A stretch of DNA of 56,483 nucleotides from a virus (taxonomy: Duplodnaviria; Caudoviricetes), in IMG/VR virus record IMGVR_UViG_3300024520_000087, positions 1 to 56,483 of that record; one strand, written 5' to 3'. A program made the translations under genes and the position numbers. Shown piece by piece: positions 2,915 to 29,601 of the stretch. Each line of letters begins with the position of its first letter. The stretch's first letter is position 1. The notes under the pieces are model-generated. The model made no database searches, was not told where the DNA came from, and saw only the letters and a program-made list of their open reading frames with translations.

Positions 2915-3100
2915 ATGACAAAGCTATATTACCAACCACCAACAGACAAACAGTTCAACGAATTAAAGAAGAAAGCTATTAAGATATGGCAAACGTACGA
3001 CAACGCTCCATATTTGTACATGTTGTTTGTTCTTTTTATGTGGCTACCTCTTCAAATAGCATTCAGATTCTTTTTAGAGATAGAGGTAGTAGGACAATAA
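2915..3100 (+). CDS. Hypothetical protein with C-terminal hydrophobic segment
   Basis: ORF downstream of the promoter, ATG 2915. Confidence 0.5.
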   Translation: MTKLYYQPPTDKQFNELKKKAIKIWQTYDNAPYLYMLFVLFMWLPLQIAFRFFLEIEVVGQ

Positions 3101-3256
3101 TCGCGTCACTGTGACGCATTTATATATGAGCAAGATCAACATGACTAAATGGGTAGATGACTTTGCAATACCTGTATGTTTTTTTATGTTTTTTATATCA
3201 ACTGGAGTTATATCCATTGCCCTTGCGGTAATAGTAGTGAAGTGGGCAATCACCTT

Positions 3257-3499
3257 ATGAATAAAGAAACTAACAAACTAATGAATCATATCGACGAGAC
3301 AGCAGAAGAACCATGCTACTGTAATCGTTGCATTAAGAGAAGAAGGATCAACGAACTCAAGGAGATATTCTCACTCTCAAACTTGCTAACAGTAATAATA
3401 TTCGTTCTCGGTCTGAGCCTAATAATCAATCTTTCATTCCCTTGGACATTAATAGGATATGGACTCTTAGGTTTCTGGCACGGGAGGGTGTTCCCATGA
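3257..3499 (+). CDS. Small membrane protein with CxCxxC
   Basis: Likely ATG 3257, two hydrophobic helices, ATGA overlap with the next gene. Confidence 0.55.
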   Translation: MNKETNKLMNHIDETAEEPCYCNRCIKRRRINELKEIFSLSNLLTVIIFVLGLSLIINLSFPWTLIGYGLLGFWHGRVFP

Positions 3500-3864
3500 C
3501 TAATAAATTCAGAGCATGGGACAGAAAAGAAAAGAAGATGATCTGTCCTGCTTTAGTGATAAGAAACATGGGCTTTGGTGATGGTTCGGTCGTGGTTAAC
3601 ACGGACGCTCGAAAGGGAAACGAGTTAGACTGGATGCAATACACAGGACTCAAAGACAAAAACGGTAAAGAGATAATCGAATCTGACTTGGTTAAGGACG
3701 ACTATGGTCACACTCTCTTGGTTGAGTGGCGGAATGGGGGTTTCGTTGCGACATTGGACAGCTTAGAAGTGGAAGGCCAAGAGCTACAGGGTGTCTACGA
3801 AGAAAACAAAACCAGCTTTGAAGTAATAGGAAATATATATAACAACCCAGAACTAATTAAATGA
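3496..3864 (+). CDS. YopX-family phage protein
   Basis: KFRAWD...MQYTGLKDKNGKEI.E.D.V...EVIGNIY.NPEL signature. Confidence 0.93.
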   Translation: MTNKFRAWDRKEKKMICPALVIRNMGFGDGSVVVNTDARKGNELDWMQYTGLKDKNGKEIIESDLVKDDYGHTLLVEWRNGGFVATLDSLEVEGQELQGVYEENKTSFEVIGNIYNNPELIK

Positions 3865-6146: not shown

Positions 6147-7214
6147 ATGAAAATCAATCTTAAAGCATTCAACGAATTAGTAAACAAAAACTTCATTGGT
6201 GTACAAAAACACCCCGATTCAGACCTTCTTATTTGGAACTACACTAATAAAGCCCAATACGATGGTGAGTGGTTGCCAGAAACAAGAATGGCTCGTGGAT
6301 TAATCACTGACTTAGATGGGAATATCCTTTATCGTTCTTTTGATAAATTCTTTAACTATGCGGAACACACAGGTGAAGATAGTAAATTAGAACCAATCCC
6401 CAATGAAGAATTCAGTGTTTATGAGAAATATGACGGCAGTCTGGGTATTTTATATTGGATTGATGGAGAGACTTTTATTTCTACTCGTGGCTCTTTTGTT
6501 TCAGACCAGGCCAAGGTTGCCACCAAGATATTACGAGATAAATACCCCAATGTTCCCTTTCAAAACTTACATGAGTGGACAATCCTTTTCGAAATAATCT
6601 ATCCAGAAAACAGAATAGTGGTTGATTACGGTGAAATGAAAGATCTGGTCTTACTAAATGCAATTAATACAGAAACTGGAGAGAGTATTAATTATAAGGA
6701 GCTGACTAAATTTGCGAAAGAAAACAATATTCCCATAGCGGAAAGATATCAATTTACATCTCTTCCAGACATGAATACTGACATTCCAATTAACGTAGAG
6801 GGTTACGTGATTGAATTTGAAGGTGGGATGAAAGTAAAAATGAAATATGACGAGTATGTGCGATTACACCGTTTGGTAACTGGCGTAAACTCAAAAACAA
6901 TTTGGGATCTTCTACGACACAAACAACCGTTTGATGAGTTGTTAGACAAAGTGCCAGATGAATTCTACGATTGGGTTAAGAAAACCAAACTCAATCTGGA
7001 GAACTCTTACAAGGAGATAGAAGACTCTGCAAAAAAGAAGTTTAAAGAGATATCTGACTTAAAAACCAGAAAAGAACAGGCATTTTCTTTATCGGGTTAC
7101 ACTTATCCTGGAATTGTCTTTAAAATGCTGGATGGCAAGGATTACGAAGAACAAATATGGAAAATTATCAAACCCAGAGCGGAAAAACCATTCAAGGAGG
7201 ACGTAGATGCCTAA
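6147..7214 (+). CDS. T4 Rnl1/RnlA-family RNA ligase
   Basis: ARGLI, FDKFFN, motif I EKYDGSLG, STRGSF, FEII.PENRIVVDY, EGYV, KMKY..Y. Confidence 0.92.
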   Translation: MKINLKAFNELVNKNFIGVQKHPDSDLLIWNYTNKAQYDGEWLPETRMARGLITDLDGNILYRSFDKFFNYAEHTGEDSKLEPIPNEEFSVYEKYDGSLGILYWIDGETFISTRGSFVSDQAKVATKILRDKYPNVPFQNLHEWTILFEIIYPENRIVVDYGEMKDLVLLNAINTETGESINYKELTKFAKENNIPIAERYQFTSLPDMNTDIPINVEGYVIEFEGGMKVKMKYDEYVRLHRLVTGVNSKTIWDLLRHKQPFDELLDKVPDEFYDWVKKTKLNLENSYKEIEDSAKKKFKEISDLKTRKEQAFSLSGYTYPGIVFKMLDGKDYEEQIWKIIKPRAEKPFKEDVDA

Positions 7215-8052
7215 AATAATACTAACCAAAGGATTGCCTGCAAGTGGAAAAACTACTTGGGTAAAGGAAGAACAAAAGAAAGATCCCAACCTTGTTCGTG
7301 TTAACAAAGATGATCTTCGTGCCATGTTGCATGGTGGTAAGTGGGGCAAGAATAACGAGAAGGATGTTCTTGCGATCAGAAATTTTATTGTAGATAGGGC
7401 ATTGACTCGTGGACGAAACATCGTTGTCGATGACACCAACCTTCATTCCAAACACGAGATACACTTGAAGCAAGTTGCAAAAAAGCACAACGCAGAATTT
7501 ACAATTAAAGACTTTACGAGTGTTTCACAAGAGGAATGTATAAAACGTGATCTTAAAAGAAGCAATAGTGTTGGTTCCGAAGTAATCCATAAAATGTATA
7601 AACAATTCCTCGACATTGTCTCTCCAGGTATCTTAGAGCCAGATCCAAACTTACCGACTGTGATTATTTGTGATCTTGATGGAACACTTTGTTTGTTCGA
7701 CGGAAATCCTTACGAAAGAGACTTCAGTAAGGATAAGATAAATAAACCCGTGAAATCTATCCTAGACAGCAATGAAGACGTGAAAGACATAATTTTCTTT
7801 TCTGGTAGAAATGGTAAATTCAAAGACCAAACAAGAAAGTGGCTGGACGATCACGGATACGGTGACTGTTCACTGTATATGAGAGCTGAAGGCGACACCC
7901 GCAAGGACGTGCTAGTCAAGAAAGAGATGTATGAAGAACATATTGAGGGCAAATTTAATGTACTATTTGTGTTGGACGACAGAGATCAGGTCGTAAACCT
8001 GTGGAGGGGCCTTGGCCTGGCTTGTTTCCAAGTGGCAGAAGGGAATTTTTAA
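7207..8052 (+). CDS. pseT: Polynucleotide 5'-kinase/3'-phosphatase (T4 PNK-like)
   Basis: Walker A GLPASGKT, NKDDLR, VDDTN, R..KR lid. HAD domain DLDGT, SGR, DDRDQVV..WR..G. Confidence 0.93.
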   Translation: MPKIILTKGLPASGKTTWVKEEQKKDPNLVRVNKDDLRAMLHGGKWGKNNEKDVLAIRNFIVDRALTRGRNIVVDDTNLHSKHEIHLKQVAKKHNAEFTIKDFTSVSQEECIKRDLKRSNSVGSEVIHKMYKQFLDIVSPGILEPDPNLPTVIICDLDGTLCLFDGNPYERDFSKDKINKPVKSILDSNEDVKDIIFFSGRNGKFKDQTRKWLDDHGYGDCSLYMRAEGDTRKDVLVKKEMYEEHIEGKFNVLFVLDDRDQVVNLWRGLGLACFQVAEGNF

Positions 8053-8225
8053 TGGAAAAGAACAAACTCACACTATATATTAGTATCGTACAATTACTCA
8101 TACTTATTTGTTTAATTGTCGTTGTTTTTGTTTTAGAGGCAAGATATGGAGGGTTAACCCACTCCGACTGTGAGATCTCCTACTGCGAGTCAGTAACACA
8201 AGAAAACCCCATACTTCAGTCATAA
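8052..8225 (+). CDS. Small membrane protein
   Basis: ATG overlaps the pseT stop, single TM helix. Confidence 0.55.
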   Translation: MEKNKLTLYISIVQLLILICLIVVVFVLEARYGGLTHSDCEISYCESVTQENPILQS

Positions 8226-8247
8226 TCATTGTAACCACAATGGGGGG

Positions 8248-8276
8248 TTGACAAATGTAACTATATTTTATATATT
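8248..8276 (+). promoter_or_regulatory. Sigma70-type promoter for the RAMP/array operon; leaderless start
   Basis: TTGACA-N17-TATATT, ATG 7 nt later at 8284. TGTAACYAYA boxes at 8230 and 8256. Confidence 0.8.
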
Positions 8277-8283
8277 ACCTCTA

Positions 8284-8475
8284 ATGAAAGTAATAAGCAT
8301 GCGCGACTTTACTACTAACCCCTACCATCATTTGGAGGAACTTCCCCTCGTCGTGATGAAAAGAAACGTCCCCCATCTTTACATACAGGACTTCTCAGAA
8401 GTGGCGACTAAGACCCTTGCAAAGAAAGTTATTAAAATGCACATAGAAAACATTGTGAAAAAGAAGAATAAATAA
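8284..8475 (+). CDS. Phd/YefM-like small DNA-binding protein
   Basis: MKVISMRDF...PLVVMKRNVPHLYI matches the Phd N-terminal pattern (ISxRDF...PVVITxxxxP). Confidence 0.65.
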   Translation: MKVISMRDFTTNPYHHLEELPLVVMKRNVPHLYIQDFSEVATKTLAKKVIKMHIENIVKKKNK

Positions 8476-8477
8476 TC

Positions 8478-9077
8478 ATGGCCAAAAACGTATCAGTACA
8501 TATCCCAGAACCAAATATACAGACAATTAAACTAACTCTTGTTGGTAGGCGACCTCTTATTATGAATGAGTGGAGTGAAAAGGCTAAAACTCAAATAAGA
8601 GACAAACAAGCCAAAAAAGCTAACAAGAAAAAGAATGCACGTAAACCAAAAGAAGAGTACGAGTCAGCCAAAATCAAAAATGGAAAAGGGAAACTTAGCA
8701 TTAAAGCTATCTGGATAAAGAGTGCAATTGTCGGATCTGCAAGATTTGTTGACGATCTTCCAATGACAGTATTAAGAGGCGCAGTCTTTGTAAGAGGTGA
8801 TGATGACGGATTAATACAACTCAGATACAAGAAAGAGGAAATGGTCGAGGACACAGTGAGACTTTCAGGGATGGGTAGAAGTGCAGATTTAAGATACAGG
8901 CCATATATCTACGACTGGGAAGCAGATGTCGAGATAGACTTTGATGGAGACGTTCTTTCTCTCGAACAAGTAGTTAATCTTGTTAAAAAAGCAGGATTCT
9001 CTAACGGTTTAGGAGAAAACAGACCAGAACGTAGTGGAAATGATTATGGAACATTCGACGTAAAAGCAACAAAGTAG
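8478..9077 (+). CDS. Stand-alone RAMP/Cas7-like protein (Vipr-like)
   Basis: RAMP-like layout: beta1 IKLTLVGRRPLIM, SIKAIWIKSAI (cf. IPGSSLKGAL), R.RP...W, and a C-terminal Gly-rich loop AGFSNGLGENRPERSGNDYGTFDV. No other cas genes are present. Confidence 0.72.
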   Translation: MAKNVSVHIPEPNIQTIKLTLVGRRPLIMNEWSEKAKTQIRDKQAKKANKKKNARKPKEEYESAKIKNGKGKLSIKAIWIKSAIVGSARFVDDLPMTVLRGAVFVRGDDDGLIQLRYKKEEMVEDTVRLSGMGRSADLRYRPYIYDWEADVEIDFDGDVLSLEQVVNLVKKAGFSNGLGENRPERSGNDYGTFDVKATK

Positions 9078-9313
9078 TGGCAGGATCGTTACGGTTTTTA
9101 TCGGAAAATTACGCAAGTTATCGGATGGGATGGGATTGGCAGGAGGGGTATCGAGTGTAGGGGATTGGACCAGAAAGGAGTCGAGGGTTAAGGATCGGAA
9201 TAGCAGGAACGGAAGAGAGGGGTATAGAGGGGTGAGGAACAGAAAGGAACGGATTGGCAGGAACGGAGGGGGAAGATTGGAGGGGAGAGTTTAGGAATGG
9301 AGAGGAATGGAAA
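9078..9313 (+). ncRNA. Pentameric (GGA-NN)n array, four units separated by GGCA/AGCA; candidate guide-RNA array
   Basis: T(G/A)GCAGGA at 9078, 9137, 9201 and 9255, spaced 59, 64 and 54 nt (all 5n+4). Between them is a 5-nt register with a mostly GGA/GGT/AGA triplet and a variable dinucleotide. Starts immediately after the RAMP stop codon. Confidence 0.8.
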
Positions 9314-9315
9314 TC

Positions 9316-9762
9316 ATGAAAACAAGAGACAAAATACAAAAAGCATTTAATGAGCTATCAGAAAAAAGCTCAGATGGAGGTGTGAGACCTGAAGACTTGG
9401 TTAAATACGCAAAACCCAAGGATTCACCACTGCATGAACACTTCGAATGGGACAATAAAAAGGCGGGTCAAACATATAGGGTTCACCAAGCAAGACAGTT
9501 GATTGGAAAACTACGAGTAGAAGTAGAAGGAGAAAACGTAAAACAGTTTCACAGTATTGTATTGGAAGTAGAAGAAGGTAAAGAAAGTAAATATTTCTCT
9601 CTAGAGAAAATACTTACAGATAAAGATCTCAAATCAAAAGCACTAAAACAGATGGTTAAGGATATTAAGTTCTTTATTAAAAAATATGAAACGCATAAAG
9701 AATTATTTGAAATAGTGAATACGGATAAAGTCGACGAATACCACAAACAGTATTTAGATTAA
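9316..9762 (+). CDS. Phage protein immediately downstream of the array (possible partner of the RAMP module)
   Basis: P..LV..A....SPLH.HFEWD...A...YR..QARQLI motif. Starts 2 nt after the last pentamer. Confidence 0.75.
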   Translation: MKTRDKIQKAFNELSEKSSDGGVRPEDLVKYAKPKDSPLHEHFEWDNKKAGQTYRVHQARQLIGKLRVEVEGENVKQFHSIVLEVEEGKESKYFSLEKILTDKDLKSKALKQMVKDIKFFIKKYETHKELFEIVNTDKVDEYHKQYLD

Positions 9763-9764
9763 TT

Positions 9765-9971
9765 ATGTTTAAAACAGGAGACAAAGTAACCATAAAAGAG
9801 GGTTCTGCTTACTATGAGAATAGAAAGCAGATGCGTGGAACCATCACGAATATAGATTATGATGATGAATGTACTGTTGAATTTGAAGATGGATATAGAG
9901 GCGAATATGCCCAAGATCAATGTGTAGATTTACTTATAAGGGAGACGAAGCAGAAAAAGAGAGGAAATTAA
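9765..9971 (+). CDS. Small SH3/KOW-like beta-barrel protein
   Basis: FKTGDKVTI...GTIT.I......VEFEDG. Confidence 0.55.
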   Translation: MFKTGDKVTIKEGSAYYENRKQMRGTITNIDYDDECTVEFEDGYRGEYAQDQCVDLLIRETKQKKRGN

Positions 9972-10041
9972 AAATAAATGCATTCGGAGAGATGGTTTAG
10001 GAGAAGACGTTTAAAGTTGAAATAGTTGAAGGAGAAGAAGA

Positions 10042-11214
10042 ATGAAAACCAAGAATAAAAAATGCAAACAGTGCAAGATAACTTTTTCCAGAAAAGTTTG
10101 GAATCAGGTATTTTGTTCCAACAAATGTCAAAGAGAATGGCTTTTAAAGGTCAACTTAAAGATCAAGGAGAAGAAAAAGAAGCAAAAGGAAGAATACAAA
10201 TCTAAACACCCGCTTGTTGAAAGAAAAAAGGAATGTAAACAGTGTGGAGAGACTTTTACCTGGAGGTCTGATAAACCAACTAGAAAATTCTGTGAAGTAA
10301 AGTGTTCATCTAAATATGGTGGCCCAAAAGAAAAAGATAGGAGAAAAAAGATAAAAGAGTCTCAACAAAACATAGACAAAGATAACAAAAATCTAGTTGC
10401 AGTTAATGACGTGTGGCTCACACTCAAGCATTACAAAGAACCTCTCAAAAAAGTTAAAAAGGGTAATCATGGATTTTATGGTGCTCTTCTTTCTACTGTG
10501 GATGGGGAACTTATACAGTGTCATATTTGCGGGAAGCTTTATAAATCATTGATTTTCCACGTGAAGTCGGCTCACAAAATAAACACCAAGGAATATAGGA
10601 AAAAATTTAACCTTGCTGGCAGTACAGCTTTAGTTTCTGAGGTTCTTAGAAATAAATATAAAAAGAGAACGATTGATTGGCTAAATAAAATGAGTAAAGA
10701 AGAAAAGGAGACATATTTTGAAAGAAAACGGGAACGCATTAAAAAATGGTACGCGAGAACAAAAAAGGATGGCACCCTCCACGAAAAAATGTCTCACCCT
10801 ATTACTTTGGAAACTAAAAACAAAAGGGGTACGTGTCCAGACCAATTACTGGACAAAATAAAGAAAGTTTCCAATCAACTTGGCCACACTCCTTCTAAAA
10901 GAGAATTTATTCAAGTCTGTGAAACACAAAGGTATATGCATCTTATTTACAAGACATTTGGGTCTTGGCCCAATGCTCTTAAGATGGCTAAATTGAACCC
11001 AAAACCAAAAACAGAAAATGGAGGACACAGAAAATACTCAGACGAAGAGTTGTTGGAATATTTAAGAATCTTTACACAAGAGTTTAACAAGGTTCCTACA
11101 TATACAGATTTTAGAAGAGGTTTATTGCCAGACTACGCAATATATACGAGACGATGGGGAGGAATAGAAAATGCAAGACAAGAAGCAGGAATTTACGAAT
11201 TTATAGAAGATTAA
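10042..11214 (+). CDS. Multi-domain DNA-binding protein: Zn ribbons, MucR/Ros-like finger, homing-endonuclease-associated helical repeats
   Basis: Two CxxC...FCSxxC-type units, CHICGKLYKSL..HV...H.....EYRKKF, and two TPS...F...FGSW..AL-type repeats. No HNH catalytic motif seen. Confidence 0.7.
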   Translation: MKTKNKKCKQCKITFSRKVWNQVFCSNKCQREWLLKVNLKIKEKKKKQKEEYKSKHPLVERKKECKQCGETFTWRSDKPTRKFCEVKCSSKYGGPKEKDRRKKIKESQQNIDKDNKNLVAVNDVWLTLKHYKEPLKKVKKGNHGFYGALLSTVDGELIQCHICGKLYKSLIFHVKSAHKINTKEYRKKFNLAGSTALVSEVLRNKYKKRTIDWLNKMSKEEKETYFERKRERIKKWYARTKKDGTLHEKMSHPITLETKNKRGTCPDQLLDKIKKVSNQLGHTPSKREFIQVCETQRYMHLIYKTFGSWPNALKMAKLNPKPKTENGGHRKYSDEELLEYLRIFTQEFNKVPTYTDFRRGLLPDYAIYTRRWGGIENARQEAGIYEFIED

Positions 11215-27090: not shown

Positions 27091-28286
27091 GCAAACTGAC
27101 ATTACATCACGCACCACTTACTAATAATCAGAAGGCGGAACTCAATTTCTTCAATGGATCATTTCTTGAAACCTTTGACGCTCTTGTGACAAGTGATGGA
27201 GCAATTGTGACATTGACGATTACTAATGCGAGCAGTGGAGATTTAACGACCAGATTTTCAAGTGGTTACTCTATTTTCACTGGAGGCTCAACAATAGCAC
27301 TAACCGCAGGAAGTGACACTTCCCCCACATCAAATTATATTTATATTCTTGAGTCAGATCCAACAAGTTTGGTCAAGTCTACTACGGAGTGGCCCGCCAC
27401 AGAACATATCAAAGTAGCCTATTTCTTTGTTCCAAGTGCAGGATTTGTGCAAACAAATGGAGCTTATATCAATCAAAACTGGAACGACCATGCCCAAAAT
27501 ACTACTAGCCAGGGACACATGACTCACATGACAGAGAGATCGAGAAGGGATGGTGCATACTATTTTTCAGGCGTAGATGGAAATGGTACAAGTGGTTACT
27601 TAACCCCAACGGCATCAAATGTAGAGTTGAAGTCAACAGCAGGTGTTATCTACCAGATGCACAAACACACTGTACCAGCGTTTGATACGAGTGGAGGTGA
27701 CATGGTTTTGGTTAAAAATTGGTCAGGTACTCCATACAATGACATTACTAATTTGTTTGATATTACAGAAGACAGTACGGGTTCATCTATCGGAAACAAT
27801 AAATATTTCAACTTGGTTCTCTGGGCAGTGGCAAATAAGTCAGGTGAATTTTCGCCGATGATAATCAACCTTCCTAGTGGATCATATAATACCCAATCAG
27901 CAGCAGAAAATGATACCAGTGGATTTGATGATTTTTCTGTACCAAGAGAATTCAACCTTGAAAGCTCAACGGCATTTCTTGTAGCCAGAATTACAATACA
28001 GAAAAAAACCACTTGGGCAGTTGCCTCTACCGTGGATCTTAGAGGAACGACACCACAAACTGCAAAAGGTGGTGCAGCAGGGATTGTTACCAGCTTTGCA
28101 GACAATGTATTTACAGTATTTGACGAAAGCGATAATACAAAAATTATGGCATTCGATGTTGGAACCAATGTAACCACAGCAATAACAAGAACGCTAGGTG
28201 TCCCTGACGCAGACGGAACAATCGCTCTTACCGATCAGTCAGATGGGTCTATTAGAGCAGATAAGTTGATTTGGTTGGGGTGGTAA
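27087..28286 (+). CDS. Virion structural/fibre protein
   Basis: S/T-rich beta protein. C-terminal TRTL..PDADGTIAL fibre motif. Confidence 0.65.
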   Translation: MSKLTLHHAPLTNNQKAELNFFNGSFLETFDALVTSDGAIVTLTITNASSGDLTTRFSSGYSIFTGGSTIALTAGSDTSPTSNYIYILESDPTSLVKSTTEWPATEHIKVAYFFVPSAGFVQTNGAYINQNWNDHAQNTTSQGHMTHMTERSRRDGAYYFSGVDGNGTSGYLTPTASNVELKSTAGVIYQMHKHTVPAFDTSGGDMVLVKNWSGTPYNDITNLFDITEDSTGSSIGNNKYFNLVLWAVANKSGEFSPMIINLPSGSYNTQSAAENDTSGFDDFSVPREFNLESSTAFLVARITIQKKTTWAVASTVDLRGTTPQTAKGGAAGIVTSFADNVFTVFDESDNTKIMAFDVGTNVTTAITRTLGVPDADGTIALTDQSDGSIRADKLIWLGW

Positions 28287-28300
28287 GATAACATAAAAAC

Positions 28301-28621
28301 ATGGCAATAACACCGAAACAATTAGCAGATGGTCAATTAGCCAATTCTATAGGTGATTTGTATACCGTGCCTGCAAGTACTACTGGATATGTCAAAAAGA
28401 TCATCTTAGTAAATACTGGTGCTGGAAACAACACCGTTAATTTATATGTAACTCCTTCAGGTGGGACTGCGAGAAAAATTATCTCTGAAGATACTGTTTT
28501 GGCAACAGGTGAATCTTTGGAGCAAACAGATCTAGTTTTGGATACTGGTGATAAAATTCAAGGTGATGCTACCAATGCAACCGAGGTTGACTTTACAATA
28601 TATGGAGCTGAAGAAACATGA
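28301..28621 (+). CDS. Small virion beta-sandwich protein
   Basis: LYTVPASTT...I.LVNT...LVL.TGD.I pattern. Confidence 0.7.
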   Translation: MAITPKQLADGQLANSIGDLYTVPASTTGYVKKIILVNTGAGNNTVNLYVTPSGGTARKIISEDTVLATGESLEQTDLVLDTGDKIQGDATNATEVDFTIYGAEET

Positions 28622-29601
28622 GGGTCTTTAATACCAATTCACAAGAAGTAATCGAACCCAGACAAGCTACTCACGACGATCTGAATGTCAACGCAAACAT
28701 TCAACAAAACGATACTGATGTAGCTACGGGCAATGCCATGTTCGTTCAGCCTGGTACGGGAGCCACTTTCCCTATTTCAGCTGCATCTTTACCCTTACCT
28801 TCTGGTGCAGCCACTTCAGCACTTCAATTAGCCGATGGACATAATGTAACAGTTGATAATGGAGCTGGGGGATCGGCCGTTAACATCCAAGATGGTGGAA
28901 ATTCAATCACAGTAGATAATGACGGACTCACAGAACTGGCTGGAGCTATTACAGCAGGTGTAATGTCTGTAGAAGATACATCAACCATACTAGACGACTC
29001 TATTTTCAATATCACCACCCAAAGAATAACAATGATGGGTGCATTTGTTGACGACACTGCAACAGATTCGGTTGGTGAGGGGGACGGTGGAGCCTTCAGA
29101 ATGTCAGCCGACAGAGTCTTATACACACAAGGCCACGTGGCTCACGATGCAGTAGATAGTGGTAATCCACACAAGATTGGTGGTAGATCACAGGAACCAA
29201 CAAGTGCACTAGAAGAAGTTGCAGATGATGACAGAACAGATGGGGCATTTGATCGACAAGGAAGGCTGGCTGTGTGGATGGGATATCCAGTCCAAAGTGC
29301 AGACATAAACGACTCGACAAGTGGAAACAACACTATTCAGGCGGCAGCGGGGGCTGGCCTTAGAATTGCAGTGATGGGCTATCATGTAATTTCAGATGGG
29401 ACCGTAGACTATAGATGGGAAGACGGGGCTGGTGGAACAGCATTTACTGGACAAATCCCATTACAGGCTCGCGAAGGTGTAGTTGCAGGTTATGGAATGC
29501 ATCCAATGTGGGTGGGAACCGCAAACACATTGCTGAATCTTGAATTGTCAGCAGGGGTTAATGTTCATGGACAAGTATCGTTTGTGGTAATGACAGACTA
29601 A
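28618..29601 (+). CDS. Virion fibre/decoration protein
   Basis: LPSGAATSA, AHDAVDSGNP.KIGG, repeats shared with 26347..27090. Confidence 0.65.
   Translation: MRVFNTNSQEVIEPRQATHDDLNVNANIQQNDTDVATGNAMFVQPGTGATFPISAASLPLPSGAATSALQLADGHNVTVDNGAGGSAVNIQDGGNSITVDNDGLTELAGAITAGVMSVEDTSTILDDSIFNITTQRITMMGAFVDDTATDSVGEGDGGAFRMSADRVLYTQGHVAHDAVDSGNPHKIGGRSQEPTSALEEVADDDRTDGAFDRQGRLAVWMGYPVQSADINDSTSGNNTIQAAAGAGLRIAVMGYHVISDGTVDYRWEDGAGGTAFTGQIPLQAREGVVAGYGMHPMWVGTANTLLNLELSAGVNVHGQVSFVVMTD

Follow-up and report, generated by a model that had tools for sequence, protein, structure and literature searches.

A pentamer-repeat tract in a marine phage genome read as a staggered VIPR guide RNA array, with one guide that matches ychF

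What does a phage encode in a run of five-nucleotide repeats lodged between two genes? The window analyzed here, positions 1–56,483, is a complete phage genome (56,483 bp, 40% G+C), and its region 8800–9600 is present in Logan contigs of several seawater metagenome runs. Between a gene for a 199-aa protein (8478–9077, +) and a gene for a 151-aa protein (9307–9762, +) lies a purine-rich tract, 9078–9313, with a strong 5-nt period. A first-pass annotation had proposed that it holds guide-sized units of pentamers coded by two variable bases, bounded by GGCA and bound by a filament-forming protein. This idea coincides with the published staggered vrRNA arrays, and we consider it very probable that the tract encodes the vrRNAs (guide RNAs) of a phage VIPR system whose array is staggered. 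The overall interpretation of the annotation holds in part: its guides and their boundary are supported, while the system and the protein had been left unnamed.

In the accessible parts of the 2026 VIPR preprints, Vipr is a small phage-encoded RAMP protein that polymerizes on vrRNAs of 9–16 YNNGG repeats (10.64898/2026.04.26.720920, 10.64898/2026.04.26.720927, 10.64898/2026.10.15.759431), with one protomer per repeat. It hides GGY, presents NN to DNA, skips every third target base, and silences transcription. In staggered arrays the vrRNAs come from positions that overlap by 1 nt; we take this definition from a figure legend alone (10.64898/2026.04.26.720920, legend of fig. S18).

Grammar of the pentamer tract

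Autocorrelation over 9078–9313 peaks at lags 5, 10, and 15 (0.42–0.47 vs about 0.25–0.30 off-peak). The summed period-5 power of the G indicator is 7.49, a value attained by none of 2000 dinucleotide shuffles (mean 1.03, sd 0.51, maximum 3.78), and 14 of the 15 most period-5 55-nt windows genome-wide fall inside the array. The pentamers are interrupted by 4-nt units, GGCA at 9079, 9138, and 9256 and the variant AGCA at 9202. Their spacings of 59, 64, and 54 nt are all 5n+4 and leave 11, 12, and 10 pentamers between them; autocorrelation and motif scan thus agree with the two-level grammar that the annotation had described. The parts of the locus are as follows.

8248..8276, + strand: promoter-like site (TTGACA, 17 nt, TATATT), 11/12 consensus matches, upstream of vipr
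8478..9077, + strand: putative vipr, 199-aa Cas7-like RAMP protein (profile, hhalign, AlphaFold/Foldseek)
9079..9082, + strand: delimiter 1, GGCA, two bases past the vipr stop codon (9075–9077)
9083..9137, + strand: guide 1, 11 pentamers, degenerate, 6/11 units starting with GG
9138..9141, + strand: delimiter 2, GGCA (motif position)
9142..9201, + strand: guide 2, 12 pentamers, variable dinucleotides matching ychF codons (1-nt-skip alignment)
9202..9205, + strand: delimiter 3, AGCA variant (motif position)
9206..9255, + strand: guide 3, 10 pentamers (pentamer parse)
9256..9259, + strand: delimiter 4, GGCA (motif position)
9260..9313, + strand: guide 4 or array trailer; 3 units, a 4-nt unit with a 1-nt slip, then 7 units
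9307..9762, + strand: putative vap, 151-aa accessory protein, winged-helix-like (homologues beside vipr in relatives)

Across 43 units, the pentamer has G at position 1 (34/43) and position 2 (35/43), and A in 34, T in 8, G in 1, and C in 0 at position 3; positions 4 and 5 carry 0.34 and 0.00 bits and are essentially random. Guides 1–3 end in GGATT, GGAAT, and GGATT, and each is followed by a restart with GGA, as had been noted. The motif T[GA]GCAGGA, which the annotation took for a guide boundary, stands at 9078, 9137, 9201, and 9255; in the whole 56,483 nt it occurs at 7 sites on the + strand and 0 on the − strand.

Three guides are well formed (9083–9137, 9142–9201, and 9206–9255) and the fourth is irregular. 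The proposal of four guides therefore survives for the three that are cleanly delimited; the fourth has an internal slip, is not closed by GGCA, and overlaps the vap start codon at 9307 with its final units. One base of register is lost in it between 9268 and 9278, in keeping with the slip reported earlier, for which there are two parses, a shortened G-run or a GATT unit of 4 nt at 9275–9278. Over 9265–9275 the Logan contigs of runs X1, X2, and X4 (contigs rather than raw reads were compared) have 0 differences and 0 gaps relative to the genome, so the slip is not peculiar to one assembly. Guide 1 is the most degenerate, with all four of the aberrant triplets that had been listed (GTT, TTA, ATT, GCA). 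It also has a 10-nt super-period, in which GG-type units alternate with the T/A-rich GTTAC, TTATC, ATTAC, and TTATC; this pattern, absent from the first guides of the related loci L001, L002, and L082, may mark a decayed guide or a second signal.

The tract RNA folds no better than its shuffles (z = +1.48; 185/200 shuffles fold at least as well), consistent with the expectation of a largely unstructured purine-rich strand. An Rfam search of 8000–10500 at E ≤ 10 returned no family, and neither a hammerhead nor any other known RNA was found between the guides. An unstructured RNA without an Rfam family counts in favor of a VIPR array. The tract would also escape a tandem-repeat finder, as had been foreseen: the sole report of TRF is a 19-nt 10-mer repeat at 9293–9311. 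No RNA-type run is on record among the listed runs that contain 8800–9600, which counts against a VIPR array.

The site at 8248–8276 is a candidate promoter of a vipr–array–vap unit, a weak suggestion that comes from a consensus match in a region where 4 promoter-like sites were seen and 5.4 were expected from shuffles. Terminator-like sites were absent from 7900–10100. A listed 75-aa TTG open reading frame (8248–8475) begins exactly on the TTGACA of this best promoter-like site and is therefore probably not a gene. Farther out, at 6147–8052 and about 425 nt upstream of the locus, is an RNA repair pair resembling that of T4: one gene encodes an RNA ligase (RNA_lig_T4_1), the other a polynucleotide kinase-phosphatase in which HAD_PNKP is joined to a P-loop kinase domain. 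Escherichia phage SUSP1 carries a DNA ligase next to its vipr. On the other side, a 390-aa protein (10042–11214) combines a ROS/MucR-type zinc-finger region with two HNH_repeat units of the kind associated with homing endonucleases.

Vipr, vap, and the related loci

The gene directly upstream of the array is assigned as encoding a Vipr/Cas7-like RAMP protein from profile and model comparisons. The single 199-aa sequence matched PDB 36pp, "SUSP1 Vipr protein," weakly (E = 0.008), a profile of 33 homologues matched the same entry at E = 2e-11, and hhalign against the SUSP1 gene product gave a probability of 97.6%. In a Foldseek search its AlphaFold model (pLDDT 88.7) came closest to Csm3/Cas7 from CRISPR complexes of types III and VII (probability 1.00, TM about 0.5). 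The protein matches PHROG phrog_4652, and a Pfam search with it found no family. Residues R141, E180, and R182 correspond to R138, D177, and R179 of SUSP1, and the G-loop, GLGENRPE, is residues 177–184; Vipr proteins are minimal RAMPs built of an RRM core, a G-loop, and a thumb. Two RNA-contacting residues are changed, N30 for SUSP1 H17, the residue in contact with the repeat's first G (2026 VIPR preprints), and N181 for W178; residue 30 is H in at least 90% of the close clade. The presence of N at these two positions counts against a VIPR array.

We assign the 151-aa gene, also by sequence comparison, as the vap of the locus, its conserved accessory gene. In 70/84 related loci a homologue is encoded beside vipr or the array and on the same strand as vipr, whereas five other neighbor genes from the phage genome had no match in those 84. 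The vap model (pLDDT 92.2) looks weakly winged-helix-like, since its best Foldseek matches, forkhead/winged-helix DNA-binding domains, are weak (E = 0.037, TM 0.55 on the target). A Pfam search found no family for it, and kinship with SUSP1 Vap1 was ruled out (hhalign probability 0.1%).

The portal protein of the phage has distant matches alone, at <27% identity, to Bacillus, Arthrobacter, and Paenibacillus phages; blastn of 8400–9800 against 50,697 phage records gave no match, and a single-protein scan of viral contigs found no relative. The closest protein relatives (P0002–P0007) share 70–76% identity, and a scan of genome contigs found Vipr relatives in many phyla at ≤44% identity (one 48-residue fragment, 54%). 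Profile-guided scans yielded the set of related loci used here: 80 viral (≤49% Vipr identity) and 4 from metagenomes (L081–L084, 62–69%). GG period-5 arrays are present in 73/80 of the viral loci, all calls but one being on the vipr strand, and in L081–L084 as well. Some are very long, 600–750 nt with a dozen or more guides (L074 2248–2997, L050 3505–4139, L030 4404–5018).

The delimiter spacing is conserved among these relatives. Of 304 distances between successive GGCAG in the arrays of the 84 loci, 226 are 4 mod 5, 63 are 0, 11 are 3, and 4 are 1; the modes of 44, 49, 54, 59, 64, and 69 nt correspond to 8–13 pentamers, and 4 mod 5 is the majority class in 68 of the 71 loci with at least one GGCAG pair. 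Control pentamers are often 4 mod 5 too (GGCGG, 36 vs 39 at 0 mod 5), as expected where they sit in neighboring guides, so the mod-5 count alone does not single out GGCA. What does so is the clustering of its distances at 44–69 nt and its dominance among 4-nt units, of which it is the commonest in most related loci. In 1,711 units from 168 GGCA-delimited guides in 64 loci, position 1 is G in 96% and position 2 is G in 84%, position 3 is C in 54%, T in 35%, and A in 8%, and positions 4 and 5 are mixed. Variation among relatives is thus confined to NN, as the annotation had anticipated, rather than spread evenly over all five positions.

The locus has an array-adjacent Vipr, pentamers of GG plus hypervariable NN, a vap gene, and abutting guides with a one-base offset. 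In these respects it is like the staggered VIPR loci as far as they are described in 10.64898/2026.04.26.720920: a phage-borne Vipr RAMP gene with one accessory gene, tandem pentamers of constant GG and variable NN, and abutting guides offset by one base (5n+4) with no tail between. The 4-nt unit is the published one-base offset of such arrays. It is unlike published VIPR in its constant triplet, GGA rather than GGY; the repeat forms named in the main text of that preprint are YNNGG, NNNGG, YNNNG, and NNNNG alone.

With the type II VIPR of SUSP1 (NC_028808.2: vipr 28474–29061, vap1 28031–28471; PDB 36pp) it shares a homologous Vipr, a pentameric code, and, for guide 2, the 1-nt-skip rule. In our own parse of the SUSP1 locus, the vrRNAs are about 11–15 mostly GGT-NN units followed by a non-repeat stretch of about 70 nt, without GGCA grammar; in the published description the conserved tail is about 40 nt long and carries a pseudoknot that caps the filament (2026 VIPR preprints). 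In the phage array, guides are separated by 4 nt and have neither the 3′ tail nor the pseudoknot of type II vrRNAs. Type II loci (SUSP1 and P. fulva) are recognized by vap1 and by an invariant 3′ tail behind each repeat tract (with a pseudoknot in the SUSP1 clade), both absent here; SUSP1 W178 and H17 are both replaced by N in the phage Vipr, and SUSP1 Vap1 is unrelated to the phage vap. The non-repeat stretches of SUSP1, set against the 4-nt units here, lead us to assign the locus to VIPR but not to type II, and the lack of a type II-like tail and pseudoknot counts against a VIPR array.

Class 1 CRISPR backbones built from Cas7 (Csm3, Cmr4, type VII Cas7) have the same fold as the phage protein and likewise place one protomer per RNA repeat length; periodically flipped-out bases are common to Cas7–crRNA backbones and VIPR. 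The Cas7–crRNA period is 6 nt on a contiguous spacer, and CRISPR arrays alternate repeat and spacer. Such a repeat-spacer array is absent from the phage locus.

The GGA scaffold was followed across the relatives, which mostly have GGC or GGT. The closest available one, L081, is also GGA (A in 45/52 GG units); GGA is dominant in L072, L036, and L027/L028 as well, and mixed in L082–L084, L079, and L080. The position-3 pocket of the SUSP1 structure is described as excluding purines, and A at this position therefore counts against a VIPR array, although repeats of "a related consensus" are allowed (2026 VIPR preprints). The G-loop residue at the W178 position was rejected as a simple cause of GGA: N occurs there with GGY arrays too (L017, L041), and F, D, or M occurs there with GGC/GGT arrays (L023, L031, L025, L055), which leaves no G-loop rule. 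At the column of residue I75, F is found in 64/65 GGY-type relatives and in SUSP1, whereas five GGA-type lineages have I, I, Y, M, and I; the exception is L001, with I and a GGY array. A GGA scaffold thus appears to go with loss of phenylalanine at this column, a correlation that, we stress, is a lead only, as the sequences share kinship. C at position 3 is absent from every body unit yet retained in the delimiter GGCA, which suggests that the delimiter is read separately from the body units, by something besides the ordinary repeat pocket.

Guide 2 and the ychF P-loop segment

When the NN dinucleotides of the guides were read as codon positions 1 and 2 under the published 1-nt-skip rule (NN, skip one base, NN), guide 2 gave a Walker-A-like peptide. 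The codons that guide 2 (9142–9201) matches are those of ychF for GIVGLPNVGKST. With the E. coli K-12 gene it agrees at 23/24 informative positions, and the alignment is in frame, each skipped base being a wobble base. In the ychF loci of 30 diverse GTDB genomes from many phyla, guide 2 scored at least 20/24 at the identical ychF segment in 20 (5 at 23, 14 at 22, and 1 at 20 of 24) and at best 14–18 of 24 in the other 10. Among these, L165, L167, L168, L172, and L173 have as best site a visibly diverged form of the motif, and the ychF locus of L166 spans profile positions 90–368 alone. In L165 (G018, an uncultured Bacteroidetes MAG) the YchF P-loop reads GIIGLTNTGKTT and guide 2 scores 18/24; if host ychF is the target, hosts with an L165-like P-loop would escape.

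The match depends on the skip and on the order of the guide. Skips of 0, 2, or 3 gave at most 16–17 of 24, so that skip 1 alone works, and permuted versions of guide 2 reached ≤19 (300 shuffles of unit order) or ≤20 (300 shuffles of bases). When 383 delimited guides of 111 loci were read forward and backward, guide 2 alone fitted YchF, with 11/12 residues, the next best having 6/9. Its sole constant mismatch is the T directly before the next delimiter, the T of the boundary motif T[GA]GCAGGA. Because the alignment runs from the first to the last unit between delimiters, the guide spans the whole inter-delimiter segment, and this, together with the conserved 5n+4 spacing of GGCAG, upholds the motif as a guide boundary.

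Guide 2 has the sense of the ychF coding strand, and its pairing partner would be the template strand of the DNA rather than the mRNA. It appears to be aimed at the P-loop coding segment, the most conserved stretch of ychF. The phage genome itself has no ychF match, and among the papers of the collection searched none mentions both vrRNA and ychF. YchF is a ribosome-associated ATPase that has been tied to leaderless-mRNA translation and stress, according to the parts of two articles available (PMC8138138, PMC8779481). We call the phage virulent-looking because its genome has no tyrosine-integrase match. That such a marine phage aims a VIPR guide at the conserved 5′ P-loop of ychF, there either to silence a host housekeeping gene or to occupy an integration site of rival prophages, is a reading to which we give an even chance.

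Viral contigs carrying ychF lend support to occupation of an integration site, in that tyrosine integrase genes immediately precede either ychF itself or a 63-nt piece of its 5′ end with which the contig terminates. These integrase genes (by Pfam in L178, L184, L202, and L204, and as open reading frames at the same coordinates in L205–L207) end 80–120 nt before the ychF start (L204–L207, 2756–4064; L202; L178; L184), and five of the contigs stop about 21–23 codons into ychF. The arrangement suggests that prophages repeatedly integrate at the 5′ end of ychF. The contigs were found with a profile of 15 YchF sequences (E. coli YchF alone retrieved nothing from viral contigs). Because they were selected by the motif, how well guide 2 scores on them carries no independent weight. 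One 2.6-kb viral contig, L208, has at 350–907 a chimeric open reading frame of about 20 YchF residues followed by unrelated sequence, and may represent a phage attachment region that mimics the ychF 5′ end. The ends of this contig repeat each other, and PTPS and NUDIX genes lie beside the chimeric frame.

The NN-skip-one-NN pattern found its target for guide 2 alone. Guides 1, 3, and 4 had no targets in the phage's own genome, the 84 related loci, or the ychF loci of the 30 genomes. Within the phage genome the best 1-nt-skip self-targets reached 15–17 of 20–24, inside the range of shuffled guides, and a codon-level six-frame scan with the guides was within the null; targets in the 84 related loci were likewise absent. 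These target-less guides count against a VIPR array, as do the degenerate guide 1 and the out-of-register guide 4.

Competing explanations and proposed mechanism

Points in favor of the VIPR array reading include the Vipr homologue directly upstream, the arrays of related loci, the conserved grammar, the variation confined to NN, the same elements in the preprints, and the ychF match of guide 2. The alternative closest to it keeps the VIPR array and denies its processing, so that GGCA would be a register break alone and one long transcript would hold several out-of-phase filaments without ever being cut. The locus consists of vipr and vap alone, no nuclease or ribozyme is evident, Rfam found nothing, and neither a tail nor a hairpin is present for a processing enzyme to recognize; moreover, the architectures confirmed by sRNA-seq in 10.64898/2026.04.26.720920, so far as its text could be consulted, did not include staggered arrays. 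Against this, the fig. S18 legend of the same preprint speaks of "individual processed vrRNAs," and the C retained in GGCA, absent from body position 3, suggests that the delimiter is read separately. We regard an uncut transcript as unlikely, while granting it some weight.

The remaining explanations do without VIPR and are far less credible. The last units, GGAGA and GGAAT, abut the ATG at 9307, as would suit a purine-rich leader, similar to a Shine-Dalgarno sequence, by which translation of the 151-aa gene behind it is tuned, but in most relatives the array comes after the vap homologue (vap at about 3080–3540, arrays from about 3550), and the 5-nt period, the GGCA phasing, and the ychF match would be left unexplained; we judge this very improbable. 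Many closely spaced GGA triplets, 10–12 per unit, might instead recall a sponge RNA for a host regulator or a wrap-around binding site: CsrA/RsmA-type proteins are GGA-binding host regulators, and TRAP-type proteins are rings with wrap-around RNA sites. Relatives with the same grammar use GGT or GGC, not GGA, however; no hairpins present the triplets, the conserved partner is a Cas7-like protein, and the variable bases of guide 2 read as a gene, so that we would assign such a role hardly any probability. Chance low-complexity sequence or a coding remnant, for which one could cite the overlapping open reading frames of 54 aa (9130–9294, +) and 73 aa (9118–9339, −), is already refuted and has a negligible claim: the period-5 power was reached in 0/2000 shuffles, a 5-nt period is unfit for codons, and the grammar is conserved in dozens of loci.

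For the VIPR array, we infer the steps of transcription, RNP assembly, cutting at GGCA, and silencing. Array and vipr would probably share a + strand transcript. If Vipr works as in the solved SUSP1 complex, each protomer would bind one pentamer; it would hold the constant triplet, which is GGA in this phage and GGY in published VIPR, and would present the two variable bases for pairing with double-stranded DNA, one target base in every three being skipped. Binding to DNA would silence transcription. Every 10–12 pentamers GGCA would shift the register by one base, marking the end of one guide and the start of the next.

The array itself is a further example of VIPR, the CRISPR-related phage DNA silencer published in 2026, and the I75/phenylalanine correlation in several Vipr lineages offers a handle on how the constant triplet is read. 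What is new is the match of guide 2 to ychF, a check on a natural target that is independent of the original VIPR work and by which a staggered, tail-less, GGA-type array still obeys the 1-nt-skip code. If true, either reading of the ychF match would extend VIPR targets past the satellites, prophages, rival VIPR loci, viral sequences, and host REP decoys named in the accessible parts of the preprints. The 23/24 match in E. coli K-12 makes the target directly testable there. Since that target is a gene segment conserved across bacteria and not a mobile element, VIPR may act on host genes or integration sites.
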